DNA from: an uncultured Clostridia bacterium
GTDB lineage: Bacteria; Bacillota; Clostridia; TANB77; CAG-508
Direction of reading: 5' to 3'
NCBI GenBank assembly: GCA_947628085.1
Contig: CANQYM010000004.1
Coordinates: 48,791 to 112,790 of the forward strand
DNA: 64,000 bases
The translations under genes were made by a program, and so were the position numbers. The notes under the pieces are model-generated. The model saw only the letters and a program-made list of their open reading frames with translations. It searched no databases and was not told the origin of the DNA. Below, in pieces: positions 18,691 to 47,900 of the stretch. Positions within the stretch are counted from its first letter, which is position 1. Every line of letters begins with the position of its first letter.

Positions 18691-19899
18691 ATGGCTAATA
18701 TTAATGATTATTTATTATGGAGAGGAGATGTTCCAATCAATTCTAATTTTCCATTTAATGAAGTTGACAGCATGATATTAGCAAGATTTGCTTATATGAT
18801 TTTTAGCAAAATAGAAATGAATCCAAAAGAAACAATTGGCTCTATTTCAGAGAAAATGAAAGACTTTCCAAATGAAGAATTCTTATATAATGGTGATAAA
18901 GAATTAATAACAAATTTAGGAGCTAGCAATAGATTTAAAAATCTTCTTGTTACTGACTATGTAGAAAATGTAGACGAGGAAATAGAAAAGCAATTTGGAG
19001 CAATAACAGTTCATTTACCACATTATGAGTTATATGTATCATATTTAGGAACAGATTTTAGCATAAATGGTTGGAAAGAAGACTTTAATATGTCTTTTAT
19101 GGATAATGTTCCTTGCCAAGTTTCTGGAAAAGAATATTTGGAAATGATTGCAAATAAATATAAATTTAAAAAGATTAGAGTAGGGGGACATTCAAAAGGT
19201 GGTAATGTAGCAATTTATTCTGCAATTACAGTTTCTCCTAAAATACAAAATAGAATTATAAAAGTATATAATTATGATGGCCCAGGCTTTAGTAAAAATA
19301 TAATTGAAAAATATGAAACAGATGATATTATTAGTAAAACACAAACTTACATACCACAAGATTCAATAATAGGAAGACTATTAAATCATAAAGAAAAAAT
19401 GCTAATTGCATATAGTACAGAAAAAGGAATTTTGCAACACGATATTTTTTCTTGGCAAGTTATGAAAAATGATTTAGAAAAATCTGATAATTATACATCA
19501 GCAAGTGAAAATATAGACCAAACCATAACAAATTGGTTAGAAGACACTACTGTAGAGCAAAGAAAAGTATTTGTAAATGTAATTTTTGAATTGTTGTTTT
19601 CTACTAATGCAACTACATTTATGGAGCTATATAAAAATTTTACAACATCTTTGCCTTTAGCGCTAGCAAAATATAAAGAAATTTCTCCTGAAGATAAAAA
19701 AGAAGTTGGAGAAATGGCAAAACAGCTTATAACTTATTATGTTGGAACTATTAAAAAACAAGAAATAGATAAACTAAATAATATGAAAACAAAATATATT
19801 TCAAATACAAAAAATAAAATGAAAGAAATTAATGAGAAAATTATGAGTAAATTTAAAAAAGATAAAAAAGCATTACCAGAAGAAAATAAAAAGCCTTAA
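18691..19899 (+). CDS. DUF2974 (Mbeg1-like) alpha/beta-hydrolase family protein
   Basis: The GHSKGG nucleophile-elbow motif is present. Length is 402 aa. A bidirectional terminator (AAGCCTTAaattTTAAGGCTT) lies at 19893-19916. Confidence 0.5.
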   Translation: MANINDYLLWRGDVPINSNFPFNEVDSMILARFAYMIFSKIEMNPKETIGSISEKMKDFPNEEFLYNGDKELITNLGASNRFKNLLVTDYVENVDEEIEKQFGAITVHLPHYELYVSYLGTDFSINGWKEDFNMSFMDNVPCQVSGKEYLEMIANKYKFKKIRVGGHSKGGNVAIYSAITVSPKIQNRIIKVYNYDGPGFSKNIIEKYETDDIISKTQTYIPQDSIIGRLLNHKEKMLIAYSTEKGILQHDIFSWQVMKNDLEKSDNYTSASENIDQTITNWLEDTTVEQRKVFVNVIFELLFSTNATTFMELYKNFTTSLPLALAKYKEISPEDKKEVGEMAKQLITYYVGTIKKQEIDKLNNMKTKYISNTKNKMKEINEKIMSKFKKDKKALPEENKKP

Positions 19900-19918
19900 A
19901 TTTTAAGGCTTTTTTATT

Positions 19919-21517
19919 TTAAAAATTAGAATCTATAAATTTATCAGTAGCTTTTAGTCTTTCTAAAACATATTCTTCAAATTTAGTTAGTTTTTCTTCT
20001 TCATTATTATAATTACTATCAACCCATCTAGTTTTATCTCTATTGAATGCACCAGAATCGTAAATTTGCTTAGAATAATTAGAAATAAGTTCTTTTAAAT
20101 GTGATTCGGAATAGTAAGTGTCTCGTAATTCTTTATATCTATTTTTTACTAAATCATTAATTTTAGTATCATTTAAATTCTTTAGAGCTCCGATTGCATT
20201 TAATTTAAAGTTAATAGTCTCATCAACAGCTACAGCATATTCGTTGGTAAAGTTTTTGCTAGTTTCATTATAAACATTTCCCATAGACAAATCATAATCC
20301 CAAGGAGTATAGATAAAAACATTTTTATTATGATGTTTTTTTATTGATATGAAAACATTTTTTAGAACGTCGGCTTTTGCATTGTCATTTCCTTGAATAA
20401 ATTCTTGGAACAGATAATAATCTATAACATTGTTTATATCACTTATATTATATAATTCATCTACATTTTTACTTTGCAAAAGAGTTACATAATAATTTTT
20501 TAAATATTGCCAGCCAGTAGCTTCATCTTTAGCTTCATTTCTTAATTCATAATTTGGAAGTTTATTTTCTTTATATTCTAAAACATGAGATTCAGTTTCA
20601 TCATATTGATTTTTTGAAAATAGATATTCTTGATTATTATCTATATTTAATTGTTTTTCATCAATACGATATCCTAAAGCATAAAGTCCCCAATATTCAT
20701 TATTTATAAAAAGCTCAAGAAATTTATATTGATTTCCATTAGTTATTCCAAACATATTATTTTTAGCAGAAGCCTCATACCATAAGTTGCTTGCAAAAAC
20801 ATTTCTAATTTTTTCTTGGTCATTGTATGCAGCATATAATATCCAATCATCATCTTTTCTCATACCTAACAAAGATAGGTGATTTTTTCTTGTGTTATTT
20901 CCTAAAGATTCCATTTTTAATGAAAGTTTAAAACATTTTTTAGGAAATACTGCTGATATTTGACCACGAATATGCATTTTTCCATCAGACCTTGTAATTC
21001 TTTTAGCAGATTTTTTACTATTATCAAAAAGATATAAAGACATGTTTATATCTGATGTTCGAGATAAGTTGTCAATATCATTAGACGTAATATTTAATAT
21101 TGGCAAAGTGGTACACCTTAATGCATATATTGTAAATTCAGTATCGTTATATAGCATTATTTCTACACAATCATTATTTTCTATTAAATTATCGGTTATT
21201 TTTTTATTAATTACTAATTTTAAATCGTCTTTATTAGTTTTATAACTAACAGTTGGATTATATCTATTACTATAACTTTCTATTAGGGAATAGTAATAAG
21301 TACAATTAACATTATCAAAAAGAAGCTCATAATCATTGAATTTTAATGATGTTGTAAAATTTTCATTTGTCATTGTTCTTTTACTAATTATTTCATTCCA
21401 AGTTTCATCACTAACTAATAAATCTTCATAATTACAGCTTTTATGATAAAGAAAGACAGAAAATATTAAAATTAATAAAATTAATATTATACAAATTAAT
21501 ATAATTTTTTTATTCAT
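19919..21517 (-). CDS. CotH kinase-family protein (membrane-anchored)
   Basis: A 532-aa ORF with an N-terminal TM anchor. CotH-like segments are present (WDYDLS..G, Y/N-rich). It is the third gene of a VTC - DUF4956 - CotH triad. Confidence 0.55.
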   Translation of the reverse strand: MNKKIILICIILILLILIFSVFLYHKSCNYEDLLVSDETWNEIISKRTMTNENFTTSLKFNDYELLFDNVNCTYYYSLIESYSNRYNPTVSYKTNKDDLKLVINKKITDNLIENNDCVEIMLYNDTEFTIYALRCTTLPILNITSNDIDNLSRTSDINMSLYLFDNSKKSAKRITRSDGKMHIRGQISAVFPKKCFKLSLKMESLGNNTRKNHLSLLGMRKDDDWILYAAYNDQEKIRNVFASNLWYEASAKNNMFGITNGNQYKFLELFINNEYWGLYALGYRIDEKQLNIDNNQEYLFSKNQYDETESHVLEYKENKLPNYELRNEAKDEATGWQYLKNYYVTLLQSKNVDELYNISDINNVIDYYLFQEFIQGNDNAKADVLKNVFISIKKHHNKNVFIYTPWDYDLSMGNVYNETSKNFTNEYAVAVDETINFKLNAIGALKNLNDTKINDLVKNRYKELRDTYYSESHLKELISNYSKQIYDSGAFNRDKTRWVDSNYNNEEEKLTKFEEYVLERLKATDKFIDSNF

Positions 21518-21526
21518 ATTTTTATC

Positions 21527-22195
21527 CTATACAATATCTTCTTGGTCATATTCAATTATAGAAAATTTTTCAACAAATTTTTGCTCTTTTAAATCTTTAG
21601 TTAAATCCTCAGGATTTTTTAGTAGCATTTCTATGGCATAGTCTAAACCTTTAGAAGTAAAGTTTCTGCTTTTAATTCTAAATCTTTTTACATGCTTTTT
21701 TAAAACATCAACAATATTTTTTTCTTCACAATCCTTACAGTGAATAACAAGCACATAAGGTAACTTTCCAAATTTTATATTTTCTAAAACTGCTAAAAGT
21801 ATTGTTACTGCAATAGAAGTTAGAATTGCTACTTCATATAATTGACAGCCACATATAATTCCAATATATACAGACCAAAGAATATATAACATATCTATTG
21901 GATCTTTTACTGCTGTTCTAAATCTTATGATAGCAAGAGCACCAATTGTTCCTAAAGTAATAACAATATTAGATTGTAAGCATAAAATTATTGTTGATAT
22001 GAAAAATGGTAATATTGTTATTAAAATATTAAATTGTTTATTATAAAAACTTCTGTGTGATACAAATCTGTAAATTAAAAATTCATAAACTGATAATACG
22101 AATACAACTAATAAAACAGATAGGGTAGTGGTAACTCCTATATCAATTCCAAATGAATTAAAAATGTTATTAAAAACTTCAATTATTCTACTCAT
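21527..22195 (-). CDS. DUF4956-like integral membrane protein
   Basis: A 222-aa ORF with 4-5 TM helices. It sits between the VTC and CotH genes, and its start overlaps the VTC stop. Confidence 0.45.
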   Translation of the reverse strand: MSRIIEVFNNIFNSFGIDIGVTTTLSVLLVVFVLSVYEFLIYRFVSHRSFYNKQFNILITILPFFISTIILCLQSNIVITLGTIGALAIIRFRTAVKDPIDMLYILWSVYIGIICGCQLYEVAILTSIAVTILLAVLENIKFGKLPYVLVIHCKDCEEKNIVDVLKKHVKRFRIKSRNFTSKGLDYAIEMLLKNPEDLTKDLKEQKFVEKFSIIEYDQEDIV

Positions 22196-22890
22196 AATAA
22201 ATTACCTATTACTTTCTTTCTTCCTATATAATATTTTGAAAAAGAAGTTTGATTAAATCCTGTTGAACAAACTATATTTTTTATATATCCTGGTAAAATA
22301 TCATCAAATTTCACTTCTAAAATATGATAATTATGTTCTTGCAAAGGAAAAGCTACATAATTTCCAGTAAGAAAATTATCAATATCATAAGAAGCAGTGA
22401 TATTTGTATCGATTGTTATACGAATATTTAAAATTGGCTCTATAAAAGCTGTTCTTTCATAGTTAATAATTACTTTAGGTTTAAAACTTTTTGTAATAAT
22501 ATCTACTATGAATTCTTTTAGTAGTGCTTTGTCTGTTTTCCAAAAGATATCCATATAATCACTAGAAATTATTTGATTAAATTCTTTAGTAGTTAAGCTA
22601 CATTTTCTTTTATGACATTTTCCAGATAATTTTTCTTTTTTCTCTAAAAATAGATTTGTACTTAAATCATTATAATATCTAATTCTCCATTTTGACCTTT
22701 TAAAATCACCAGATTCAACTTGTTTTGCTGATGTGTTTTTATAATCATCAAAATACAAACTATGTATAATATAATTTCCATTTTTTGTTGAATTTTCATC
22801 GAGCTGTAATAATGGGGAGAGTCTAGATTTTAATAATTCAAGATTGCAATTTGATAAGATATATTTCTGTTCATTCCTATATTTTTTCAT
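22192..22890 (-). CDS. VTC (polyphosphate polymerase / CYTH-like) domain protein
   Basis: The N-terminus MKKYRNEQKYIL carries the ExKY motif of VTC/CYTH domains. I moved the start to ATG 22890, which has a GGAGG RBS. Confidence 0.55.
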   Translation of the reverse strand: MKKYRNEQKYILSNCNLELLKSRLSPLLQLDENSTKNGNYIIHSLYFDDYKNTSAKQVESGDFKRSKWRIRYYNDLSTNLFLEKKEKLSGKCHKRKCSLTTKEFNQIISSDYMDIFWKTDKALLKEFIVDIITKSFKPKVIINYERTAFIEPILNIRITIDTNITASYDIDNFLTGNYVAFPLQEHNYHILEVKFDDILPGYIKNIVCSTGFNQTSFSKYYIGRKKVIGNLL

Positions 22891-22972
22891 AAAAACCTCC
22901 GTGCAAATTTTATCATAGGATTCTAATAAAATCAATATTTTTGTGTATTTTAAAAGAAATTAACATAAAATA

Positions 22973-23001
22973 TTGAAAAAAAACATAAAAGTTGTTATAA
23001 T
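22973..23001 (+). promoter_or_regulatory. Near-consensus extended -10 promoter upstream of hppA
   Basis: TTGAAA, a 17-nt spacer, then TGtTATAAT. A long 5' UTR of about 180 nt follows. It contains a hairpin (ATAGCCtttatacAGGCTAT) and AGTAACTTT direct repeats. Confidence 0.55.
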
Positions 23002-23183
23002 GGAAATGCATAGCCTTTATACAGGCTATTTGAAATAGAGATTAGGTTTATAAGAAAGGAGATGAAAAGAGAAAACAAAGAGTAACTTTAAGTGAATAGG
23101 AGATGATAACAACAGAAGACAACTAGTAACTTTTGAGAATCTCTGCTAACTCGTTGGACAACGATAGAATGGAGGCAAGTAAC

Positions 23184-25334
23184 ATGACGTATTTGATCAT
23201 CACATTGATCGTGGCAATCACGGCGATTGCTTATGCCATACGGAACTACATTTACCTCAAGGGACTTTCCGAAGGGACTAAGGAGATGGTTCAAATCGCG
23301 AAATTCATTCGCGATGGTGCGAACACTTTTCTTAGGAAACTGTACGCCATTGTTATTCCGGTTATGCTAGCAATAGCTCTTGTGCTGTCAGGAATGCTCG
23401 ACTTCTCAGTCGCTGTTGCATTCATTATTGGCACATTAATGAGCGCAGCGGCTGGAATCTTTGGTATGCAGGGTGCTACTCGTGCGAATGTGCGTGTGGC
23501 AGAAAAGGCAAGAAGCACCCAAAACATCTTTGAGACCCTAAAAGTTGCTGTCCTAGGCGGTAGTATAAATGGACTTTCTACAATGGGCTTCGCTTTGCTT
23601 GGACTGGTGATTGTTTCAATTCTGTATCATAACCAGTTGTTTGACATTAGCGAAACCACGAATAGTTGGGGAATTGGTTACATCCCGATTTCTCAAATAC
23701 TTACCGCCTATGCCTTGGGATGCTCTGTAATTGCCATCTTTGCACGTGTTGCGGGTGGTATATATACAAAGGGTTCAGACACTGCAGCAGATCTTGTCGG
23801 TAAAACGGAAGAACACATTCCAGAGGATGATCCCCGGAATGCTGCGGTTATCGCTGATAACGTTGGCGACAATGTTGGCGATACAGCAGGACTTGGTTCC
23901 GATTTGCTCGAATCCTTTATGGGAACGATTGTATCTACGATAGTGCTCTTGATTCACACTATTGTGAGTTATCTGGCAAGAAACATGGAGTTCAGTCAGA
24001 AACTCTTTGAGAAACTCTATATCTTTCCCATTGTTTTCGTGACTATCGGGCTATTCTCCTGTATGCTCGCTCTCTTCAGATTTTTGAAGAAGAAAGCACC
24101 GGTCGACGATGAGCCAATTAACCCTCATGCAGAGCTTAACAAGTTCACATGGACTTCTGCTGGCCTTACAGCAGTTCTCAATATAGCCTTCACGTTTATG
24201 CTTTTCGGAGGCGAAAATGTTGGTGGTCTGCCTTTTAAGTTTGGATTTGCTTCACTGATTATTTCTGCCGTTGTTGGTATTGTCGCAGGTATTGCCATTG
24301 GCATTATCACTGAAATTTATACGAGCGATGAAAAATCAACAACGAAGAAAATCGTCGAAATTGCTCCCAAAGGGGCATCTTTGGTTATAAATCAAGGTAT
24401 GGCTGGAGCAATGAAGTCGGTTCTTCCGACAGTAATTGTATTGGCCTGCATTGTTCTTATACCATATGCCTGTGCCGGTTTTATTGGAATTGCGATTTCT
24501 GCAGTTGGTATGCTGTCATTTGTTGCAGCAACAGTTACTGTGGACTCGTATGGACCAATTGCCGACAATGCTGGAGGAATTGCCGAAATGGCAAAACTCG
24601 GCGATGATGTCCGCAAAATAACCGATATGCTAGATGCAGTGGGAAATACCACTGCTGCAATTGGTAAAGGACTTGCAATTGGCGCTGCTTCTTCTACCAC
24701 TATTGGTATGATGATTGCTTATGTTTATATCTTTAATCCGCCCACAGCGGAGGTAAGTTTAAACATGATCAACCCGCTAGTTTTCGCAGGACTGCTAGTG
24801 GGTTGTGCAATAACATACTTCTTCTCTGGTATGCTAATCGAGGCAGTAGCTGAAGTGGCTGAAAAAATGGTTCAGGAAGTGCGTAGGCAGTTTGCAGAAA
24901 TCCCTGGACTTCGTGAAGGGGAAGCACTGCCGGACTATAATGAGTGTGTTGAAATCGCTACAGTGGGAGCAATCAAAGAAATGAAGCTTCCTGCAATAAT
25001 TGCGATTATACTACCGATCGTTGGTGGGTTCATTATGGGACCGCTATTTGTTGGTGGCATACTCATGGGCGCTATTCTGTCTGCCATTGTTCTTGCAGTC
25101 TTTTGCGGAAATTCTGGTGGAGCATGGGATAACGCCAAGAAGCTTGTTGAAGCTCTTGGCAAAAAAGGCTACCCAGAACACATCGCAACAGTTGTGGGAG
25201 ACACTGTTGGCGATTCACTCAAAGATACTGTTGGACCGAGCTTGGACATATTTATCAAGATTATGTCCACGGTATCAATATTATTCGCACCACTCTTTTC
25301 TGTATACAACCTAATAAATCTTATCAGCAAATAA
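23184..25334 (+). CDS. hppA: Membrane-bound proton/sodium-translocating pyrophosphatase (H+-PPase)
   Basis: The DNVGDNVGD and VGDTVGD motifs are present in a 16-TM architecture. The start is set at MTYLIITLIV after GGAGG. GC is roughly 45-48% against about 25% in the flanks. A terminator-like hairpin lies at 25362-25385. Confidence 0.9.
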   Translation: MTYLIITLIVAITAIAYAIRNYIYLKGLSEGTKEMVQIAKFIRDGANTFLRKLYAIVIPVMLAIALVLSGMLDFSVAVAFIIGTLMSAAAGIFGMQGATRANVRVAEKARSTQNIFETLKVAVLGGSINGLSTMGFALLGLVIVSILYHNQLFDISETTNSWGIGYIPISQILTAYALGCSVIAIFARVAGGIYTKGSDTAADLVGKTEEHIPEDDPRNAAVIADNVGDNVGDTAGLGSDLLESFMGTIVSTIVLLIHTIVSYLARNMEFSQKLFEKLYIFPIVFVTIGLFSCMLALFRFLKKKAPVDDEPINPHAELNKFTWTSAGLTAVLNIAFTFMLFGGENVGGLPFKFGFASLIISAVVGIVAGIAIGIITEIYTSDEKSTTKKIVEIAPKGASLVINQGMAGAMKSVLPTVIVLACIVLIPYACAGFIGIAISAVGMLSFVAATVTVDSYGPIADNAGGIAEMAKLGDDVRKITDMLDAVGNTTAAIGKGLAIGAASSTTIGMMIAYVYIFNPPTAEVSLNMINPLVFAGLLVGCAITYFFSGMLIEAVAEVAEKMVQEVRRQFAEIPGLREGEALPDYNECVEIATVGAIKEMKLPAIIAIILPIVGGFIMGPLFVGGILMGAILSAIVLAVFCGNSGGAWDNAKKLVEALGKKGYPEHIATVVGDTVGDSLKDTVGPSLDIFIKIMSTVSILFAPLFSVYNLINLISK

Positions 25335-25498
25335 TGATAAACTGCTGTGAAAATATGCGAAGAGCTCCTTGGGGAATTTCCCAGGGAGTTCTTCCTTATA
25401 TGAAAATTAAAATTAAATTTTTAAAAAAATTGATTATTATTAATTGATATGATAATATATTTAAATAGAAATATACAAAAGTAGAGGAGTTAGAAAAG

Positions 25499-25924
25499 AT
25501 GACAAAATTTTTATATTGGATTGTTGAGTTAATTTCAAAAGCACATACTTTCATTATGCATATAAACGATACCTATGAATATGAGTTCACAGATAAAGAA
25601 TTACACTTTATAATTATTGGGTTATTAGGAATTTTTTTAATTATTATAATATATCCAATTTTTAAGCATCTTGCTAAGAAAAATCATTTTCTAACTTTAA
25701 CAGGAATTTATGTTTTTACTTTAATTGTTGTTATAACTTTTGCCATTGAAATTGGACAAAAAATTACAAACACTGGAAATATGGAATTTGCTGATGTGCT
25801 ATTTGGAATTACAGGCTTTGTATCGATGTATATTGGTTTGGCAGTAATTGTTGGAATTATTAAATTTATAACAAGCATTATAAAAAAACATATAAATAAA
25901 GTAGAAAATAAAAACAATGGATAA
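25499..25924 (+). CDS. Hypothetical membrane protein
   Basis: A 141-aa ORF with four hydrophobic helices. A GAGGAG RBS precedes the start. Confidence 0.4.
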   Translation: MTKFLYWIVELISKAHTFIMHINDTYEYEFTDKELHFIIIGLLGIFLIIIIYPIFKHLAKKNHFLTLTGIYVFTLIVVITFAIEIGQKITNTGNMEFADVLFGITGFVSMYIGLAVIVGIIKFITSIIKKHINKVENKNNG

Positions 25925-25953
25925 ATAAAATAATTTACAAAAGAGGAGTATAT

Positions 25954-27273
25954 ATGAAAGAAAAAGGAATTTTACTTCCAATCTTTTCTTTGCCAAGTAA
26001 ATATGGTATTGGTGATTTTGGAAAAGAAGCATATGAATTCATAGATATATTAAGTGAGAATAATATGAAATATTGGCAAATTTTGCCTATAAATGCTTGT
26101 GAAAATTTACCATATTCACCACAAAGTTATTATGCACTAAATGAAAGCTATATATCACTAGATTTGTTAAAAGAAGAAAATTTAATTGAAAATCCTGAAG
26201 TAAGGAAAGATACAAATAGAGTAAAATATGATAATTTTAAAGAAAAATATTATTATGAAGCTTTTAGAAATTTTACTAAAAATGAAGAATATGAGAAGTT
26301 TATCGAAAACAAAGAAATAGAAGAATATGCTGAATTTATAAGTGATTTAAAAGGAGAAGAAAAAGATTATCATTTGTTTCTGCAATATATAGCAAGCAAA
26401 CAATGGCTTAATTTAAAGCAATATGCAAATTCAAAAAATGTGGAAATAATTGGAGATATGCCGATATATCCAACTTTTGAATCAAGCGAAACAAAATATC
26501 ATCCAGAATGTTTTGAAATGGAAAATGGAGAATTTACTTTTGAATCAGGCACACCACCAGATTATTTTAATTCTGATGGCCAAAAGTGGAATAGTCCAGT
26601 ATATAATATTGAAAACATTAAAAATAATAATTATGAATATTTAGTAAAAAGGTTTAAATATTATTTAAAACTATTTGACAAAGTTAGAATAGATTACTTT
26701 AGAGGATATGATTCATTCTTTAAAATACCAATTGGTAAAACTGGAAAGAAAGGCTTTTATGTAGATGGTGTAAGTTATGGATTTTTTGATGAGCTATTTA
26801 AAAACAAAAACATAAAAGTTGATAACCTAATAATAGAAGATTTAGGAGATATAAGAGAAGAAACAATTAAATTAAGAAATTATTATGGATTTACAAGACA
26901 AAAAATTTTACAATTCACAATAGACTTAAATAATTTATATGATAGAGATAATGAATCTGAAAATGTTTTAGTCTATCCAGGAAATCATGATAATTATACA
27001 ATATATGGCTGGTATAAAACTTTAAATGATGAATACAAGGAAAGATTAAAAGAGTTTTTAAGAAGAAATGAATGTTATGATATAAATGTTAATATTGGTA
27101 TGATGCAATATTGTTCAAAATGCAAGGCAAAAATGGCAATAATATCAGTTCAAGATATTTTAGGTTTAGACGATAGTGCTAGAATTAATTTTCCAGGAAC
27201 AATTTCAGAAAGCAATTGGTCTTGGAAACTTACGAGTTTTGATGATTTTAAAGAAAGAATAAAAGACTTTTAA
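25954..27273 (+). CDS. 4-alpha-glucanotransferase (GH77 amylomaltase-like, short form)
   Basis: The N-terminus GILLPIFSLPSKYGIGDFG...YWQILP and the GDMPIY segment match the MalQ/GH77 family. Length is 439 aa. Confidence 0.65.
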   Translation: MKEKGILLPIFSLPSKYGIGDFGKEAYEFIDILSENNMKYWQILPINACENLPYSPQSYYALNESYISLDLLKEENLIENPEVRKDTNRVKYDNFKEKYYYEAFRNFTKNEEYEKFIENKEIEEYAEFISDLKGEEKDYHLFLQYIASKQWLNLKQYANSKNVEIIGDMPIYPTFESSETKYHPECFEMENGEFTFESGTPPDYFNSDGQKWNSPVYNIENIKNNNYEYLVKRFKYYLKLFDKVRIDYFRGYDSFFKIPIGKTGKKGFYVDGVSYGFFDELFKNKNIKVDNLIIEDLGDIREETIKLRNYYGFTRQKILQFTIDLNNLYDRDNESENVLVYPGNHDNYTIYGWYKTLNDEYKERLKEFLRRNECYDINVNIGMMQYCSKCKAKMAIISVQDILGLDDSARINFPGTISESNWSWKLTSFDDFKERIKDF

Positions 27274-27300
27274 ATGAATGTAAATGGGGAGGAAAATATA

Positions 27301-27354
27301 ATGTCTAAAAACATTGATACTGTGCGCACACACACACGGGGACTCATTAAATGA
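27301..27354 (+). other. Out-of-frame upstream start peptide (MSKNIDTVRTHTRGLIK) ending at the (CA)5 tract, with a strong GGGAGG RBS
   Basis: The ATG is 9 nt after GGGAGG. This reading frame is +1 relative to the downstream acyltransferase ORF. The (CA)5 tract at 27327-27336 lies between the ATG and the conserved body of the acyltransferase. Confidence 0.5.
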
Positions 27355-28489
27355 AAATGATGTAATAAAAAATAAAAAAATTGGAAAAGAAAGAGATTCT
27401 AACTTTGAGCTTTTAAGAATATTTGCTATTTTTATGATAATAGTAAGCCATTTTTGCTATCATGGAGGAGTTTTAGAAAATGTAGTAAGTGAAAAAATCA
27501 CAACAAATCTAATAATAACTCAGATTTTATATTTTCAAAATTGGACTATTAGTGTTTTCATAATGATAACAGGATATTTTATGATTAAATCAAAAGCTAA
27601 TTATAAAAAAATAATTAATCTTATAATAGAGATGTTTTTTTATTCAATAGTTTTTATGGGAATATTTTATGGGTTAAATATTGTAAAATTTGATATTAAA
27701 CGATGTATATCTAATATTTTTCCTATTTTTTGGAGCGGAAATTGGTTTGTTAAATATTATATTATACTTTATTTATTGATACCATACCTTAATATATTTA
27801 TTGAAAAACTAAGTAAAGAACAATTACAAAAGGTTATTGTATTATTTTTGATAATTTTTTCTATTATTTCTACTATTACTCATAACGCTTGGAATTTTAC
27901 ATGGCATAATATATTTATATTAGATTATATTATAGGAGCTTATATTAGGCTTTATCCTATAAAGAAATTAGAAAATAATAAAATAAATATAATATCTTTA
28001 TTATTAATTACTATTTTATCTTTAGTTTTTTCAGTAACCTGTATGCTTCTTTCAAAAATATTAGATGTTTCTATTTTGTTTAAAATACCAGGAGCATTAA
28101 TAAATTCTTTTTCATCACCAGTTCCAATTTTAATAGCATTCTTTATTTTTCATTTATTTAAAAATATAAAGATAAAATCTAAATTAATAAACTATATAGC
28201 ATCTTCTACTTTAGGAATATATTTAGTTCATGACAATAGTTTTATTAGAGATTGGATATGGAAAACGTTGGTGCCAAATGCTAACTTTTTAGGATTAAAC
28301 ACACTATTATACATTTTATTTATGCTTGCAAAAGTAGCTATTGTATTTCTAGTTTCTGTTGCGGTTGATAAAATTAGAATTATTTTACTTCAAAAATTAG
28401 AAGATAAACTAAGCAATAAAATTTATAATATATTACTAAATTTTAAAAATTTTATTAAAAGAAAAGTTTATAATAAAATAACATTATAA
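27314..28489 (+). CDS. Acyltransferase-3 family (OatA/OafA-like) O-acyltransferase, possibly phase-variable
   Basis: The FELLRIFAIFMIIVSHF start of the acyltransferase-3 domain and about ten TM helices are present. As written the only start is a TTG with no RBS. The well-placed ATG is out of frame. Confidence 0.6.
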   Translation: MILCAHTHGDSLNENDVIKNKKIGKERDSNFELLRIFAIFMIIVSHFCYHGGVLENVVSEKITTNLIITQILYFQNWTISVFIMITGYFMIKSKANYKKIINLIIEMFFYSIVFMGIFYGLNIVKFDIKRCISNIFPIFWSGNWFVKYYIILYLLIPYLNIFIEKLSKEQLQKVIVLFLIIFSIISTITHNAWNFTWHNIFILDYIIGAYIRLYPIKKLENNKINIISLLLITILSLVFSVTCMLLSKILDVSILFKIPGALINSFSSPVPILIAFFIFHLFKNIKIKSKLINYIASSTLGIYLVHDNSFIRDWIWKTLVPNANFLGLNTLLYILFMLAKVAIVFLVSVAVDKIRIILLQKLEDKLSNKIYNILLNFKNFIKRKVYNKITL

Positions 28490-28561
28490 TTTGAAAATAT
28501 AAAATTTGCATTTTAAAGTCGAAATAATATATAATAGTAAAAAAATGGGAGGAATAAAATA

Positions 28562-28921
28562 ATGGTTAAAGAAAGAAATATTGTTGTATGTATTTTATTA
28601 TCAATAATAACATGTGGTATTTATGCTATTTATTGGTTTATAACATTAACAGATGATACTTCAAAATTAAATAATGATCCAGATTTTTCAGGAGTTAAAT
28701 CTTTTATCTTTTCTCTTATTACTTGTGGTATCTATGGTATTTATTGGAACTATAAAATAGGTAAAGAAATGTATGAAGCAAATCAAAAAGCTGGGATTCA
28801 AGCAAGTGATAATTCTGTAATATACTTAATTTTATCAATATTTGGATTAAGTATTATTACATACTGTTTAGTTCAAAGTGAATTAAATACTATAGCTAAA
28901 CAAACTGGTAATGCTCAATAA
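28562..28921 (+). CDS. DUF4234-like small membrane protein
   Basis: The CGIYAIYW motif is duplicated across two TM helices. Length is 119 aa. Confidence 0.45.
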   Translation: MVKERNIVVCILLSIITCGIYAIYWFITLTDDTSKLNNDPDFSGVKSFIFSLITCGIYGIYWNYKIGKEMYEANQKAGIQASDNSVIYLILSIFGLSIITYCLVQSELNTIAKQTGNAQ

Positions 28922-29318
28922 TAAGAAAAATATTATATTAGTCATAGGGATTTTGATTTTTGTTATTCTTTTTCAAGACAATATTGGAATCCCTTGCTTC
29001 TTTCATGAACTAACAGGATTATATTGCCCAGGTTGTGGTATCACAAGAGCATTTCTTTCATTAATCAAATTAGACTTATATCAAGCATTTAGATATAATA
29101 TGTTGGTAATAATATTATTACCTTTTTTTGCTATGTATACAATTTATAAATTAATTATGAAAGGAAATAAAAAAATACCAAATTTTATTTGGTATTTTTT
29201 ATTAATCATTACAATATTATTTGGAATACTTAGAAATATTTCTGCTTTCTCATTTCTTGCCCCAACTAAGGAAAATTTAAAAAATAAGCCCTATTGTTCT
29301 TGGCATAATATATATTAA
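28911..29318 (+). CDS. DUF2752-like membrane protein
   Basis: The CPGCGITRAF motif is present. Length is 135 aa. Its start overlaps the end of the upstream gene. Confidence 0.5.
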   Translation: MLNNKKNIILVIGILIFVILFQDNIGIPCFFHELTGLYCPGCGITRAFLSLIKLDLYQAFRYNMLVIILLPFFAMYTIYKLIMKGNKKIPNFIWYFLLIITILFGILRNISAFSFLAPTKENLKNKPYCSWHNIY

Positions 29319-29339
29319 ATTAATGATTGGAGAAATGTA

Positions 29340-29765
29340 GTGAAAATAATAAAATTTGAAGAAAAATATCGAGATGATATGATTTTTATGGTATTAAGTG
29401 CTAAAAATGCTTTAGGCAGAGTTCCAAAACTAAACGAAGATTTATTAGATATAAAAAAGAATTATTTTGACAAAGGACATCCTTTTTGGATAGCATTAGA
29501 TGAATTTGATAGAGTAATTGGATGTATAGGTACAAGAAGTGATGAAGATGGAAAAATATTTTTATCAAGATTATATGTTAAATTCGATCATAAGAGACAT
29601 GGGATTGGTAGTCAATTATTGCAACTAGCAGAAGATTCTGCAAGGGAAAGAGGATATAAAGAAATACATGTTCATTTAGGAAAAGATTATTTAGAAAGTC
29701 ATATTTTTTATCCAAAACATGGATATATTGAATATCAAAATTTATATATGAAGAAAAAATTGTAA
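29340..29765 (+). CDS. GNAT family N-acetyltransferase
   Basis: The acetyl-CoA-binding-like segment HGIGSQLLQLAEDSARERGY is present. Length is 141 aa. The start is GTG. Confidence 0.65.
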   Translation: MKIIKFEEKYRDDMIFMVLSAKNALGRVPKLNEDLLDIKKNYFDKGHPFWIALDEFDRVIGCIGTRSDEDGKIFLSRLYVKFDHKRHGIGSQLLQLAEDSARERGYKEIHVHLGKDYLESHIFYPKHGYIEYQNLYMKKKL

Positions 29766-29849
29766 GTTGTTACACAAAAAAGATTTATTAAAATTTGATT
29801 ATATAAATGATTTATGTGATAAATTTAGTGAAGTATTAAATAAATAAGG

Positions 29850-30512
29850 ATGGTACTAATAGTTATGAAAATAGATGAATTAAATATTGAATATGATAAA
29901 TTACAATTAAAGTATGGAGCAAAAGAATTAACATCTATATATAATGGCGGTTGTACAGAAAATCCGAATTTTTGCTTTATTTTTATGAATCCTACTGGAA
30001 AAAATATTGCATCTAATCCAGAATGGAAAGGCAGAAGATCTCCATGGATTGGAACTAAAAATATATGGAAATTATTTTATCGAATAGGTTTACTTGATGA
30101 AGAAATATATATGAATATTATGTCAAAGAAACCTCAAGAATGGAATGAAGAGTTTGCAAATTTAGTATATGATAATGTAATAAAACATAAATACTTTATT
30201 ACGAATTTAGGAAAATGCACTCAATTAGATGCAAGAGTATTACCTAATTCAGTTTATAATCAATATTTAGATTTATTATTCAAAGAAATAGAAATAATAA
30301 ATCCTAAAGCAATTATTACACTTGGAAATCAAGTTAGCTCTATCGTATTAAATAAAAAAATATCAGTATCACAATGTAGAAAACAGAGCTTTTCAAAAAA
30401 TATTTTAGGGAAAATTTATAAAGTCTATCCAGTTTATTATCCAATAGGAAATGGAATGATGAATATGGATAAAGCAATAGAAGACTTAAATTATATTCAA
30501 AAATTTTCATAG
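29850..30512 (+). CDS. Uracil-DNA glycosylase superfamily protein (family 4/5-like)
   Basis: The segments FMNPTGKN...SPWIG and FITNLGKCTQ...IEIINPKAIITLGNQVS are collinear with family-4 UDG motifs (GEGPG...; ICNVVKCRP...IEIINP..IVALG). The start may instead be the ATG at 29865. Confidence 0.5.
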   Translation: MVLIVMKIDELNIEYDKLQLKYGAKELTSIYNGGCTENPNFCFIFMNPTGKNIASNPEWKGRRSPWIGTKNIWKLFYRIGLLDEEIYMNIMSKKPQEWNEEFANLVYDNVIKHKYFITNLGKCTQLDARVLPNSVYNQYLDLLFKEIEIINPKAIITLGNQVSSIVLNKKISVSQCRKQSFSKNILGKIYKVYPVYYPIGNGMMNMDKAIEDLNYIQKFS

Positions 30513-30675
30513 TTAATACAGACTTTTTTATTATATAATAAAATTGAAATATTCAATATTGACAAACTATTTTTTCTATAATAATATACAAACAATAGTT
30601 CTTAAATATAGTAAAGACAGATGTATTATTAAAAGTAATAATAAGAACTAAATTTTATAAAAAGGATGTGTTCTT

Positions 30676-31617
30676 ATGGAAGAAAAGAAAAATGAAATTA
30701 TAATATTTGAAAATCAAGATGTTAAACTTGAAGTTAATTTAAAAGAAGATAATGTGTGGATTACTGCAAATCAAATGGCTATACTGTTTGATAAAGATGA
30801 AACTACTATCAGAAAGCATATTAATAATGTGTTCAAAGATAAAGAATTAGAAAAAGATAACAACAGGCAAAAAATGCGCGTTGATGGTGTAAAGCAATTA
30901 GTACCATTTTACAATTTAGATGTTATTATATCAGTAGGATATAGAGTAAAGTCAAAAAATGGTGTAATTTTTAGACAATGGGCAAATAAAATTTTAAAAG
31001 ACTATATGTTAAAAGGTTATGCTGTAAATCAAAAAAGATTAGAATATCTAGAAAAAACAATAAAACTTATAGATATTGCTAATAGAATTGATAAAAGATT
31101 AGAAGGAAATGATGCAAAAGAGATTTTAAAAGTAATTGGAAATTATTCAAAAGCTCTTGACTTATTAGACGATTATGATCACAAAACATTAAAGAAGCCA
31201 AATGGAAATGTTGACGAAAGAAAAGTTGAATATAATGAATGCTTAAAAGTTATAGACAAATTAAGATTTAATCAAGAAAGTTCTTTATTTGCAGTAGAAA
31301 GAGATAAGGGATTAGAATCAATTATAGGTAATATTTATCAAAGTTTTGCTGGACAAGATGTTTATAAAAGTATAGAAGAAAAAGGAGCTAATTTTTTATA
31401 TTTAATTGTGAAAAATCATGTATTTGCTGATGGAAATAAAAGAATAGCAGCTACCTTATTTATATATTTTTTGAACTTTTATGGTATTCTATATAAAAAT
31501 GGAAAACAAACAATAGATAACAATACTTTAGCTGCATTAACTTTGTTAATAGCAGAATCAAATCCTAAAGAAAAGGAAATTCTTATAGATTTAGTAATGA
31601 ATTTTTTAAATGATTGA
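30676..31617 (+). CDS. RhuM-domain / Fic (Doc) family protein
   Basis: The N-terminus IIIFENQDVKLEVNLKEDNVWITANQMAILF matches the virulence-RhuM domain. The C-terminus carries the Fic motif HVFADGNKRIAA (HxFx[DE]GNxR). Confidence 0.7.
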   Translation: MEEKKNEIIIFENQDVKLEVNLKEDNVWITANQMAILFDKDETTIRKHINNVFKDKELEKDNNRQKMRVDGVKQLVPFYNLDVIISVGYRVKSKNGVIFRQWANKILKDYMLKGYAVNQKRLEYLEKTIKLIDIANRIDKRLEGNDAKEILKVIGNYSKALDLLDDYDHKTLKKPNGNVDERKVEYNECLKVIDKLRFNQESSLFAVERDKGLESIIGNIYQSFAGQDVYKSIEEKGANFLYLIVKNHVFADGNKRIAATLFIYFLNFYGILYKNGKQTIDNNTLAALTLLIAESNPKEKEILIDLVMNFLND

Positions 31618-44914: not shown

Positions 44915-47900
44915 TTATTTGGTTTTATTTTGAATTGTTACATTTTGATTTTCTACTGTATTTGTATTTATATTCTTTTTTGTAGATATTGTGTTTGTTG
45001 TATTCGTAGTATTTGTTGTATTTTCTAAATCTATTGTATTGGTAAAGTCATTTTCTTCTACAATGTTTTCAGTATTAGAATTTTCATCTACTCTGTTATT
45101 ACTACTATTAACTATATTTCCTTCTACATCACTTGTAATAGTATTTTCTACTGTATTTGTTATATTTAAATCATCTAATTGAATTCCAGTGATGTTTAAT
45201 AGATTATCTGCTTCTAATGAAATACTTTTAGCATTAGGATTTTTATCAAATGGATTAATTGTGAAATCCTCTGTTTCTTTTTGTATTTGTCTGAAGTATT
45301 GTTTTTTAACAGCTGTGCTGTTTGAAAGATTTCTATTTCCAGATTGAGCGTCTTTTATTAATGCTTCAAGATATTTTTCGTAAATTTCTTTTGCGTTTAT
45401 ATATGTACCTTGATCATCATAATGCTCTCCTAATTTCTTATATCTGTCTAATTTGTATTTTTTGAATGTAATGCTTTCATCATTCATTATATAACGTAAT
45501 GCAGTTAAATCTGTTGTATTTCCGCCTTTACCATTTTTAATACCAACATATTTTTGACTATAGTAAGCACAAAGTCCATCATAATACCCACGTTCTCCAG
45601 CCATTTGCCATGCCAAGTATTTAAAGTTTGCTCCATCTGGACGGTCATTATCTGCATGTGGTTGATACCAGTGAATGTTGAAAATTGAATCTGTGTCTGC
45701 TCCTGGTGAACGTTGTTCATATTCTTTAACACCTGGTCTTAGCATTATACGATTATCCCAAAGTGCTTCCATAGATTTTAAGTTCATTCCTTGAACTCTA
45801 TCTGTTGTAAGTGGTGTGTATGCAACTACATCATCACCTTCGTCTTGATGAGCTTCATCAACTTGTGGATAAGATACTTGTACTGCAAGTTTTGCCTGAT
45901 CTTCTGGAGATAGTGTAAAGAATGCTTTTGCTTCTATCCAGTCTAAGAAGTCATTTGTATTAAAGTAATTTTTATAAAATACTGATAATTTCTTATCATT
46001 TTCAACTGTTGCACGATAGAAGTTTTGAGTTGTATTTTCTTTCATAAGGTCATCATCAAATATGTTTGGACTTACCCAACCATCTCTATAATATTGTTGT
46101 AAGAATCCTGCAGCATAGTCTTCTGCTCCACCTCTACGTCCATAACCATTTAAGAAAATTTTACTATCTTGGTTATGAAGAGTTTCGTGTGTTCCAACTC
46201 TAAAGTTATCTAGCATTTTTATAACAACCCAGAATACTTCATTTCCGTTTGCATAAGCGCCTCCTGAAGTACCTGCCCATCTATTTATAGCTTCAATGAA
46301 ATATTTGTGATATGGTTCTTGTGTTGTTAATGGATTATTATATACAGTTGCATTTCCTTGGCCTGTATAAGTTGTTCTCATATCATAGTTTACATCGCAA
46401 TATTTATTTAAAGTGTCTTTGCCCCAATATGTGTATCCAAATTCGTAGAATGCTTTAACTTCTTTTAACCAAACATTTACTTTCTTTTCGAATGCTGCAA
46501 TTTGATCTGGGTTGCTAGGATCTGTCATATAAACACGTAAAGATCCAAAGTATGCTTGTGTTGGTGAAGCAATTGCATAAGTACTATTTTCTGGAACTGT
46601 ACATAGTGGTAAGAAATCATTTTGTACTTTACCATCTTTCTTTAGATGATCCCATAATGTGTAATCAACGCCTTCTTTATCAATGCTTACTGTATAATAT
46701 CTTCCACCTTTCCAATGTTCCTTAAACCAAGTATTTCCATCTGTATAATGTGTTAATGTTTGTACATAGTAATCTAAGAATAATCCTAAGTTAGTTAATT
46801 TAGTATATTTTGCAAGACCATTGTTATAGAATCCTGCTGTTCCATTTGTTGCGGAATTTGTTCCAGTAATAAGTTCATTTGTGATATTTGCCATAGTCAT
46901 TCTATTATCAAACATTTCATTTGCATGGAACATTATTGAGTCTGCAACATTTATTCCATCCATATCTAAATTATACCAATATGTGAAATAATTATATGCA
47001 AATAACAAGTTCTTTAGTTTTCCAGTTCTTACTAAATCTTGTTTAATTAAGTTATCTAAAACTTCACTTTCAAAACTCATACTGTAATCCATATTAACTA
47101 AAGTATTTATAATAAAGTCTTTAATATGATTTTTAGTATAGTTTTCAAAATGTTCTTTATATAATCTACTATCTTCTCCTGAAACAATTGGCTCTAAGTC
47201 GTTATCATATGTGTAAGAAGAAGCCTCAGTAACAAGATAATTTATAATGTCTAAGTTAGGATTTATAATATACTTATTGTAGTTATATCCAACATTTAAA
47301 TCACTTATCATATATGATGCTACATTTCCATAGTAATCATCAAAATCTATATGATATTTCTTTGAAGTTTTATCTGTAAATACAATTCTTATTTCATTTA
47401 AGCTATTATAATTTTCTGTTGTAAGAGAAGAAATCATATTTCCTGATTTATCATAAGGAATAACATATTTAACTATTTTTGTGCTTAATTCGTTATCAGC
47501 AGGAATTTTGTTTCCATCTCTTATTATTTCTTTTGCATCATAGAATGGCATTATTTTGTACATATTGTGATATACAATTTCTTTATTTGAATCATAGTCT
47601 GGTAATTTATGTACTCTGTTATAATCTGGAATATATACTTCTGTGTTTTCTGGTTGTTCACCATCATCACTAAATGAAGCTGATACAGATTTAAGTACTG
47701 GTAAATTATTAATTGATGTATTACCATCTATTATCCAAGCTTGATCACTAAAATCTAATTTTTTAAAGAAATTGCTATCTATGTCTTTTGCATCTACTTC
47801 TTTTACAGCATTTGATAATGTATTTTTTAAACAATTTGTTTCTTTTAATTGATAATTGTCTTTTGAACCTTCTGCAAGAGTTGCTGTATTTTTATTTTCA

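Follow-up and report, generated by a model that had tools for sequence, protein, structure and literature searches.

A lineage-wide G+C excess in the pyrophosphatase gene hppA of A+T-rich Bacillota appears to be old and maintained

The gene considered here is hppA, coding for a predicted membrane-bound pyrophosphatase, on a stretch of 64,000 nucleotides (nt) from an uncultured Clostridia bacterium (assembly GCA_947628085.1, contig CANQYM010000004.1, positions 48,791 to 112,790 of the forward strand; hereafter the window). It is much richer in guanine plus cytosine (GC) than the genes around it, and the initial annotation had taken it for a recent import from a donor of higher GC. Somewhat better than even chances are given here to another reading: the G+C-richness of hppA has long been maintained in the gene lineage, probably by selection on the mRNA, and is not the scar of a recent high-GC import.

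Composition and codon usage of hppA

The coding sequence of hppA displays a GC content of 0.441, with 0.524, 0.400 and 0.397 at the first, second and third codon position (GC1, GC2 and GC3), against a mean GC of 0.258 (standard deviation, sd, 0.027) and a mean GC3 of 0.127 (sd 0.038) in the 43 other open reading frames (ORFs) of the window. The atypical composition is therefore real, although the exact value of 44.1% lies slightly under the 45-48% that had been estimated by eye against about 25% in the flanks. Plotted in steps of 100 nt, GC rises sharply at about 23000 and falls again at about 25400, at the borders first drawn. The four codons picked out by the initial annotation are indeed rare in the other ORFs and enriched 6- to more than 20-fold in hppA (GCG 12% vs 2%, CGC 14% vs 1%, CTC 19% vs 0%, ACG 23% vs 1%). 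C-ending codons of the two-fold pyrimidine type are raised in comparison with the host (TTC 43% vs 15%, AAC 46% vs 16%, ATC 28% vs 3%), and so are G-ending codons (CCG 42% vs 1%, ACG 23% vs 1%, CTG 16% vs 1%, CAG 56% vs 7%, AAG 42% vs 11%), while A-ending codons are halved. In every hppA of the clade described below, the frequency of A at third positions (A3) is 0.18-0.40 against 0.33-0.50 in the flanks and that of T (T3) is unchanged, so that the gain of G and C at third positions in all clade members comes from the fall of A3.

Ordinary translational selection, in which a highly expressed hppA would use the optimal, G/C-ending codons of its host, could account for the rise of C-ending codons in the two-fold pyrimidine families (TTC, AAC, ATC) and would suit the strong predicted promoter. 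However, G-ending codons that are barely used by the host (CCG, ACG, CTG, CAG, AAG) rise as much as the C-ending ones, which argues against ordinary tRNA adaptation; highly expressed genes of low-GC Firmicutes favour A-ending codons for Lys, Glu and Gln. Moreover, the untranslated leader of hppA is enriched in GC too, and hppA of the A+T-rich Clostridium paraputrificum has a GC3 of 0.14 without any excess. The host usage was taken from a window that holds no ribosomal or other highly expressed genes for codon comparison. Translational selection is considered very improbable.

The hppA gene and its product

23184-25334, plus strand: hppA coding sequence, 716 amino acids (aa), predicted from sequence to encode a membrane-bound, K+-dependent, Na+-type pyrophosphatase
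23171-23175, plus strand: Shine-Dalgarno (SD) sequence GGAGG of hppA, 8 nt before the ATG, as read from the sequence

Membership in the H_PPase family was defined by a full-length profile match, about 16 transmembrane helices and a length of 650-800 aa. HppA matched Pfam PF03030 (H_PPase) over profile positions 1-645 of 645 (E 1.1e-211), and NCBIfam NF001960 'sodium-translocating pyrophosphatase' scored 679.6 with a cutoff of 546. The best solved structure is the K+-stimulated Na+-pyrophosphatase of Thermotoga maritima (Tm-PPase, 4AV3; E 2e-197), to which residues 8-707 were aligned. Over this full-length alignment, HppA shares the Asp-rich catalytic motifs binding pyrophosphate and Mg (DNVGDNVGD, DNAGG, GDTVGD), the Ala in GNTTAAIGKG and the Glu in DLLES (DLLESF). 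The plant H+-PPase 6AFU reads DLFGSYAES where HppA has DLLESF, and in plant H+-PPases the gate Glu is shifted by one turn relative to E246 of Tm-PPase. In the literature on the family, the Ala (not Lys) of GNTT(A/K)A, for K+ dependence, and a gate Glu at the E246 position, for the Na+ type and located in helix 6, are the marks of the K+-dependent Na+-type subfamily. From these residues, hppA is predicted to encode an ordinary and intact K+-dependent Na+-translocating membrane pyrophosphatase, with an ion specificity (Na+ only, or Na+ plus H+) that is not readable from sequence. The ratio of nonsynonymous to synonymous divergence (dN/dS) is 0.043 against the closest allele, that of the sister genome, which indicates that hppA is under strong purifying selection.

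The protein differs from Tm-PPase and from its own clade by the motif GDSLKD instead of GDPLKD, and from the family by its position on a long branch, 55-61% identical to the nearest clade. GDSLKD (window 25202-25219) is found in the HppA of the window and of the sister (L002); the conserved GDPLKD is present in 115 of 121 aligned HppAs.

HppA homologues and the clade-wide GC3 excess

Among 5.8 billion proteins, the closest one to the window HppA is an allele with 93% identity in a sister metagenome-assembled genome (MAG), and the next best is 60% identical. The next relatives (55-61% identity) form one clade with 65-85% identity among themselves. In a neighbour-joining tree, all 200 bootstraps placed the window HppA with this clade and none of 200 with the GC-richer outgroup, which consisted of HppAs of Clostridia and Oscillospiraceae MAGs with 45-58% GC.

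Twenty-two loci of the clade were collected: two by exact-protein look-up (L100, L103), 17 by a metagenome scan for the clade-specific peptide NVGDTAGLGSDLLES, written as a codon-degenerate pattern, and three as further subclades (L125-L127). All 22 are located in A+T-rich DNA (0.25-0.32 GC) and display the same anomaly, with a GC3 of 0.19-0.46 in hppA against 0.09-0.21 in the neighbour ORFs. In the 17 motif-found loci, the flanks have 0.25-0.32 GC (the flank of L108, only 83 nt long, being not informative), the neighbours a GC3 of 0.11-0.21 and hppA a GC3 of 0.19-0.41; in L125, L126 and L127, hppA reaches 0.27, 0.46 and 0.22 against 0.16, 0.11 and 0.09 in the neighbours. The gene neighbourhoods of hppA differ between subclades, and its GC3 differs even among close relatives (0.40/0.52 and 0.28/0.36/0.38).

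This is not the usual behaviour of the family. Across 59 unrelated genomes, GC3 of hppA follows that of its neighbours (hppA GC3 = 1.16 x neighbour GC3 - 0.06, r 0.95, residual sd 0.056), without an excess in the five low-GC genomes included. The window hppA lies 5.6 sd above this regression, the sister 7.6 and the clade members 2.0-6.0. A pull on GC3 by the high GC1 and GC2 of the protein through sequence context was ruled out, since hppA of low-GC genomes has no GC3 excess. GC-rich ORFs elsewhere in the clade loci were considered as a sign of expression-linked GC; they are small unknown ORFs and not highly expressed genes. Sporulation-type genes (YabP/DivIC, Spo0A, SpoIIID, CotH) are tied to the hosts of the window and the clade, which can be described as spore-forming Bacillota-like. 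Taken together, the GC excess looks like a lineage-wide and long-maintained property of an hppA clade residing in spore-forming Bacillota genomes of 25-32% GC.

These data bear directly on the rival proposed by the initial annotation, i.e. a recent acquisition from a higher-GC donor, in which hppA would have inserted downstream of a host-type promoter, or have evolved one, and would now be on its way to 26% GC by amelioration. The atypical GC and GC3 with sharp borders are what such an event would leave, and the lack of a close homologue anywhere could be explained by an unsampled donor. However, the nearest relatives all reside in A+T-rich contigs with the same excess, no donor was found among the 5.8 billion proteins, and the neighbour-joining tree never places the window HppA with the GC-richer outgroup. 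The A3-specific nature of the excess also does not resemble general donor-like codon usage.

Promoter, leader and 3' hairpin of the unit

22959-23001, plus strand: promoter (predicted function), consisting of the upstream/-35 block ATTAACATAAAATATTGAAAA, the -35, the spacer and the extended -10
22959-22979, plus strand: conserved block ATTAACATAAAATATTGAAAA, a 21-mer overlapping the -35
22973-22978, plus strand: -35 element TTGAAA, followed by a 17-nt A-rich spacer
22993-23001, plus strand: extended -10 element TGtTATAAT, from a consensus scan
23010-23029, plus strand: 5' stem-loop of the leader, with a stem of 7 bp (ATAGCCU/AGGCUAU), beginning about 3 nt past the predicted transcription start
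23054-23135, plus strand: tandem module in two copies with a 44-nt period, each with an SD-like box, an A-rich stretch with a mini-ORF, and GTAACTTT
23054-23061 and 23098-23102, plus strand: SD-like boxes GAAAGGAG and AGGAG, the first about 125 nt before the ATG
25359-25394, plus strand: 3' hairpin with a 16-bp G+C-rich stem, a GAAU loop and a weak U-tract, ending the unit

With these elements, hppA is predicted to be expressed as a self-contained monocistronic unit made of an extended -10 promoter, a leader of about 176 nt, the ORF and the 3' hairpin. The near-perfect promoter announced by the initial annotation was recovered as the best site of the region in a consensus scan (22973-23001, TTGAAA-17-TATAAT, 11 of 12 matches plus the upstream TG). 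The transcription start was predicted about 7 nt past the -10 box, from which the length of the leader follows.

The promoter had been regarded as host-like, but a host promoter that captured a foreign ORF is not supported. The 21-mer ATTAACATAAAATATTGAAAA occurs once in the window and is identical upstream of hppA of L100, the protein of which is only 60% identical. The signature AAWATTGAAAAW-N6-AAAA-NN-TGNTAWAAT was found once each in 12 of 124 loci, always 5' of hppA and nowhere else, and the 12 loci span window-type and distant clade members. The restriction of the signature to the upstream region of hppA across the clade indicates that the promoter travels with the gene. Since the layout of promoter, leader and terminator is common to relatives of 55-61% identity, the promoter was not supplied by this host, which also speaks against a recent high-GC donor.

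The long, repeat-bearing 5' untranslated region with a hairpin was confirmed. The 5' stem-loop (23010-23029; dG -8.1 kcal/mol, z -1.8) is kept in the sister allele and in a third allele, with differences confined to the loop. A 5'-terminal hairpin was predicted for 14 of 14 clade leaders examined, with unrelated sequences and a mean z of -1.65 (at predicted starts), and the leaders of L125-L127, read by eye, also open with a hairpin. The two copies of the tandem duplication (23057-23091 and 23098-23135, direct repeats D2/D3/D12) share 79% identity, and the AGTAACTTT repeats first noticed are the ends of this duplication. The SD-like box GAAAGGAG(G) extends complementarity to the 3' end of 16S rRNA. 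In 13 of 14 clade leaders, and also in L125-L127, an SD-like box of the form (A)AAGGAG(G) precedes the start codon by 52-195 nt. The clade leaders are long in general (about 100-370 nt), and a GTAAC(T) motif recurs in most of them. Leader GC amounts to 0.21-0.40 (at least 0.29 in 11 of 13) and exceeds that of other intergenic DNA (0.19-0.29) in 11 of 13 loci. With an untranslated leader enriched in GC, the deviation spans the whole transcript.

At the other end of the unit, the 3' hairpin (dG -28.6 kcal/mol, z -6.1) is kept in the sister allele, where a G-U pair is replaced by G-C, and hairpins with a GAATTC-like centre occur downstream of hppA in L100, L103, L125 and L126. It was missed by the terminator scan because its T-run is short.

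The leader resembles known mRNA stabilisers. STAB-SD elements and 5' stem-loops are established as mRNA stabilisers in Bacillus according to the parts of PMC7509114 and PMC12970973 that cite Agaisse & Lereclus (1996) and Hambraeus et al. (2002). As in the STAB-SD of cry3A from B. thuringiensis, an SD-like box complementary to 16S rRNA is located far upstream of the start of hppA and recurs in the clade; as in the aprE leader, a stem-loop is predicted to stand at the very 5' end of the transcript, again recurrent in the clade. By this analogy, the hppA leader may belong to the STAB-SD/aprE type. In contrast to STAB-SD, the box of the window is duplicated within the 44-nt tandem repeat, and the described stabilisers have no counterpart to the conserved UGUAAC(U) of the hppA leaders. 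This motif is located downstream of the SD-like box in the leaders of L100, L105, L111, L116, L121 and L125-L127, and at 23083-23088 and 23127-23132 in the window; no pairing partner for it was found by eye in the printed leader sequences. The leader of L106 is unusually long: its 368 nt upstream of hppA hold two repeats in tandem, each about 100 nt long and with many CACAGGTTGCGATT-like units.

Two other functions were considered for the leader and rejected. The modules contain mini-ORFs (MKRENKE*, MITTEDN*), of which the start, frame, length and presence vary among alleles and across the clade and the ATG abuts the SD-like box without spacer; as they are not conserved, they are read as incidental by-products of the SD-like box. 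For a riboswitch, Rfam 15 gave no gathering-score match in the window, none in 22900-23260 at E up to 10 and none in the hppA leaders of 12 clade loci, and the fold of the whole leader is no better than that of shuffled sequences (z 0.34).

Allelic divergence at the locus

22971-25430, plus strand: block of deep allelic divergence, which has the same extent as the transcription unit and reaches from the promoter spacer to slightly beyond the 3' hairpin

The sister MAG (GCA_947601495.1) carries hppA at the same locus, between a divergent VTC/DUF4956/CotH operon and orf141-GH77. Sliding identity between both sequences is 98-100% up to 22970, drops to 71-85% at 22971-24301, reaches 83-93% at 24302-25301 and 78% at 25302-25401, and returns to 91-96% downstream. 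Within hppA, the divergence is a mosaic: the 5' half is about 77% identical, the 3' half about 88%. Synonymous divergence (dS) between window and sister is 1.06 in hppA and 0.02-0.41 in 16 other shared genes. At fourfold degenerate sites that are A or T in both alleles, A<->T divergence amounts to 0.18 in hppA, against 0.012 and 0.071 in the flanks (upstream and downstream, respectively) and 0.039 on another contig. As both this divergence and the drop in identity exceed those of the flanks, the alleles of the unit are older than the flanks. Hypermutability of GC sites was rejected as the only cause of the high dS, since A<->T differences are also 2.6-15 times those of other genes. A third allele (L087/L089) shares 87% identity with the sister allele and 81-86% with that of the window, so that at least three hppA alleles with 13-18% DNA difference exist in the species group between near-identical flanks.

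This pattern points to the whole unit being swapped as an allele among relatives by homologous recombination, or to old alleles being kept while the flanks were homogenised. Allele exchange explains the sharp borders of composition and divergence, the presence of at least three alleles and the GC3 of 0.40 vs 0.52. Of the horizontal origin first proposed for the unit, a local form thus survives, as exchange among relatives with sharp borders, while the recent high-GC donor is mostly contradicted. The far greater divergence of hppA alleles than of their flanks would also fit such a donor. However, the borders of the unit lack the signs of an insertion: a repeat scan found no flanking direct repeats or att-like sites, there are no tRNA genes in the window and no mobility genes at the borders, and there is no empty site, as every related contig reaching the VTC-GH77 interval carries hppA. 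The comparison with sister strains that had been suggested therefore reveals no patchiness. Carriage by a phage or mobile element was rejected, as the clade motif had 0 matches in IMG/VR, att-like repeats are lacking, and the recombinase genes near some loci resemble xer-type housekeeping genes and are not located at the borders.

Deeply diverged alleles between near-identical flanks and the mosaic within the gene are also expected from the main non-adaptive rival, recombination-linked biased conversion. Here hppA would be a recombination hot spot with GC-biased gene conversion or repeated replacement by GC-richer alleles, and its mRNA features would be incidental. The variation of GC3 between close relatives given above is in line with it.

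The locus is not an assembly artefact. A chimeric join or metagenome contamination could be suspected, as the source is a MAG-type assembly and several metagenome contigs end inside hppA. But an independent metagenome contig from ENA (12,992 bp) matches window 17733-30724, with both junctions, with 1 mismatch; five further contigs carry the window-type 3' part and its junction with 100% identity; the sister MAG has a diverged allele at the same locus; and the promoter lies in A+T-rich DNA continuous with the divergent VTC operon. A chimeric assembly at the hppA junctions, which the initial annotation had wished to exclude, is effectively refuted. The contigs ending inside or at the edge of hppA (L086-L090, L093-L097) come from several samples, which is consistent with co-occurring diverged alleles or with low coverage breaking the assembly graph.

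The operon divergent from hppA (19919-22890, minus strand) codes for a VTC-domain protein (polyphosphate-polymerase-like), a DUF4956 protein and a CotH kinase. It is near-identical in all strains (dS 0.02-0.09), and the DUF4956 protein is identical in 21 contigs. A connection to polyphosphate/pyrophosphate metabolism is hinted at by its pairing with hppA, which however was observed in the group of the window only.

Stationarity of GC3 in a syntenic trio

Three clade loci (L107, L114, L111) form a syntenic trio which shares flanking genes together with hppA. A<->T divergence, scored at fourfold sites that are A or T in both sequences, was 0.18 in hppA vs 0.30 in the flanks and 0.34 vs 0.34 in pairs of the trio, and 0.17 vs 0.21 in the pair L112/L115. 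As the divergence of hppA in these syntenic pairs is that of its flanks and not higher, the gene has descended vertically together with its neighbours.

A three-leaf latent-class fit with strong and weak states was applied to silent third positions of the trio (L107 and L114 against L111). It gave hppA a GC3 of 0.33 at the internal node and of 0.32 and 0.335 at the leaves. Weak-to-strong change per site was 0.105 (bootstrap 0.036-0.154) in hppA vs 0.021 (0.005-0.042) in the flanks, and 0.14-0.16 vs 0.03 by parsimony. The constant GC3 from node to leaves, together with a 4-5-fold higher AT-to-GC fixation, indicates that GC3 is at a gene-specific steady state and not decaying in this trio. In the syntenic pairs of the clade, dS of hppA is 1.5-3.5 times that of the flanks, due to strong/weak turnover at hypermutable GC sites.

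An elevated rate of AT-to-GC fixation is predicted by biased conversion too. However, the GC3 excess persists in the three other syntenic pairs, in which A<->T divergence of hppA equals that of the flanks and thus gives no sign of extra recombination. Effects of biased conversion reported on bacterial GC3 are small, in contrast to an hppA GC3 of 2-4 times that of its neighbours. Biased conversion also does not predict the loss of A3 with T3 unchanged, the excess folding reported below or the GC-enriched leader. It is regarded as unlikely.

Folding of the hppA message

Folding was evaluated in 120-nt windows by comparing the native sequence with synonymous codons permuted within the gene. hppA folds in clear excess in the window (z -5.3), in the sister (-7.5) and in L100 (-4.9), while six other genes of the window gave z of +1.5 to -2.4 in the same test. 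Among outgroup hppA genes, z was -6.1 in L010, -3.7 in L004, -3.3 in L003 and 0.0, without excess folding, in L050 (Clostridium paraputrificum).

Other compositional outliers in the window

62354-62918, plus strand: second GC-rich unit, with promoter, leader of about 120 nt with CTCGAC-type repeats, ORF and terminator
62354-62382, plus strand: promoter of the second unit, TTTACA-17-TATAAT with TG (TGgTATAAT), from the sequence
62502-62843, plus strand: ORF of 113 aa, GC 0.54, with GC3 0.70 > GC1 0.50 > GC2 0.41
62890-62918, plus strand: terminator of the second unit, with a 12-bp stem

The layout of promoter, leader and GC-rich ORF does recur at 62.5 kb (62354-62918), as was first noticed. The 113-aa ORF has no homologue among 5.8 billion proteins and no Pfam or Rfam match, is absent from the gene calls of two other assemblies of the same strain type, and folds with z -2.9. 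Unlike hppA, this unit looks like a genuinely recent foreign ORFan. The resemblance of this neighbour to a true recent import is a further point in favour of a high-GC donor for hppA.

A third compositional outlier is an ORF of 320 aa (58624-59586, minus strand; GC3 0.33, GC 0.35) without Pfam domain, located between the gene for a 4,520-aa protein and a DUF2207 gene and identical in 5 contigs. The 4,520-aa ORF (44915-58477, minus strand) carries dockerin and peptidase M26 C-terminal domains, and its composition is normal for the host (GC3 0.11). The sister MAG conserves it, with 97.5% identity over the C-terminal 1,167 aa.

Discussion

The evidence for a long-maintained deviation includes the excess in all 22 clade loci, the vertical descent in syntenic groups, the stationary GC3 in one of them, the avoidance of A-ending codons, and a promoter and leader travelling with the gene. 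Several observations weigh against it. The stationarity comes from one trio, with a bootstrap range of 0.11-0.66 for the equilibrium GC3 and a flank sample of 318 sites, and the vertical descent of the whole clade was deduced from composition and three syntenic groups and not from a species tree. The window HppA stands on a long branch, which makes its exact placement uncertain. Between window and sister, silent AT/GC differences run 141:63 toward AT gain in the window, with GC3 at 0.40 vs 0.52; this comparison has no outgroup, and it has the look of ongoing decay from an ancestral GC3 of about 0.6. Taken over its full length, the leader shows no unusual structure (z 0.34). Excess folding is found in three of four outgroup hppA genes without GC excess, and regional differences in composition can inflate the folding test.

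The difference in GC3 between window and sister is compatible with decay or with different set-points, and as decay it would favour the recent high-GC donor. Where changes could be polarised, GC3 is stationary. With the relatives, the tree, the shared architecture and the lack of any insertion signs also against it, such a donor is judged quite unlikely.

Since outgroup hppA genes fold in excess without GC excess, the anomaly in GC needs more than structure to be explained. More widely, hppA genes may be under selection for a structured message, and in a genome of 26% GC such a message would be attainable only by raising GC3. Selection on the mRNA would then be the force that keeps the GC of hppA high. 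The G+C-enriched and locally structured coding sequence would act together with the 5' stem-loop, a STAB-SD-like decoy for ribosome binding and the strong 3' hairpin. As an outcome, the message for a 16-helix pump would persist for long and/or be translated slowly, amid other messages that are extremely A+U-rich. Separately, the whole unit would be exchanged as an allele within the species group by homologous recombination. A more specific version is put forward tentatively, with less than even confidence: a single housekeeping-type gene would hold a compositional equilibrium of its own over very long times (GC3 of 0.2-0.5 in genomes of about 0.1) through avoidance of A-ending codons, by selection for mRNA structure and stability together with a conserved leader with 5' hairpin, STAB-SD-like box and UGUAAC motif, maybe an undescribed cis-regulatory element.

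Selection for higher G+C at synonymous sites of bacteria was reportedly described by Hildebrand in 2010 and by Raghavan, Kelkar and Ochman in 2012 as a genome-wide and weak effect. hppA is similar in that AT-to-GC changes are fixed beyond the mutational background. It differs in that a single gene, throughout a clade, has a GC3 2-4 times as high as its neighbours.

With the islands of Lawrence and Ochman, hppA shares a GC and GC3 far from those of the genome, sharp borders and a silent turnover faster than that of resident genes. In contrast to such islands, its composition is stationary and common to all relatives in A+T-rich hosts; no donor, mobility genes, att sites or empty site were found at hppA; and the deviation goes toward a higher GC than that of the host through the loss of A-ending codons only.

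As the Na+-pyrophosphatase is ordinary and its leader is built from elements of known types, hppA is of value for the evolutionary pattern and not as a new molecular system. Composition and codon outliers are routinely scored as recent horizontal transfers; the hppA of the window, in contrast, seems to have been resident for long, with a deviation that is actively kept up, and is a warning for island-prediction tools. If true, the clade would be a natural exception to the rule by which an atypical composition is taken as a mark of foreign DNA, and would allow RNA-level selection on GC to be measured in a tractable case. In bacteria, higher expression and fitness have been linked with GC-richer synonymous variants, according to the part of PMC8495750 that cites Raghavan et al. 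(2012). If selection on the mRNA is causal, hppA would offer a natural experiment, with the same protein family free of the anomaly in other A+T-rich clostridia, and this contrast would inform on the weight of synonymous GC and coding structure for a large polytopic pump in an A+T-rich cell.

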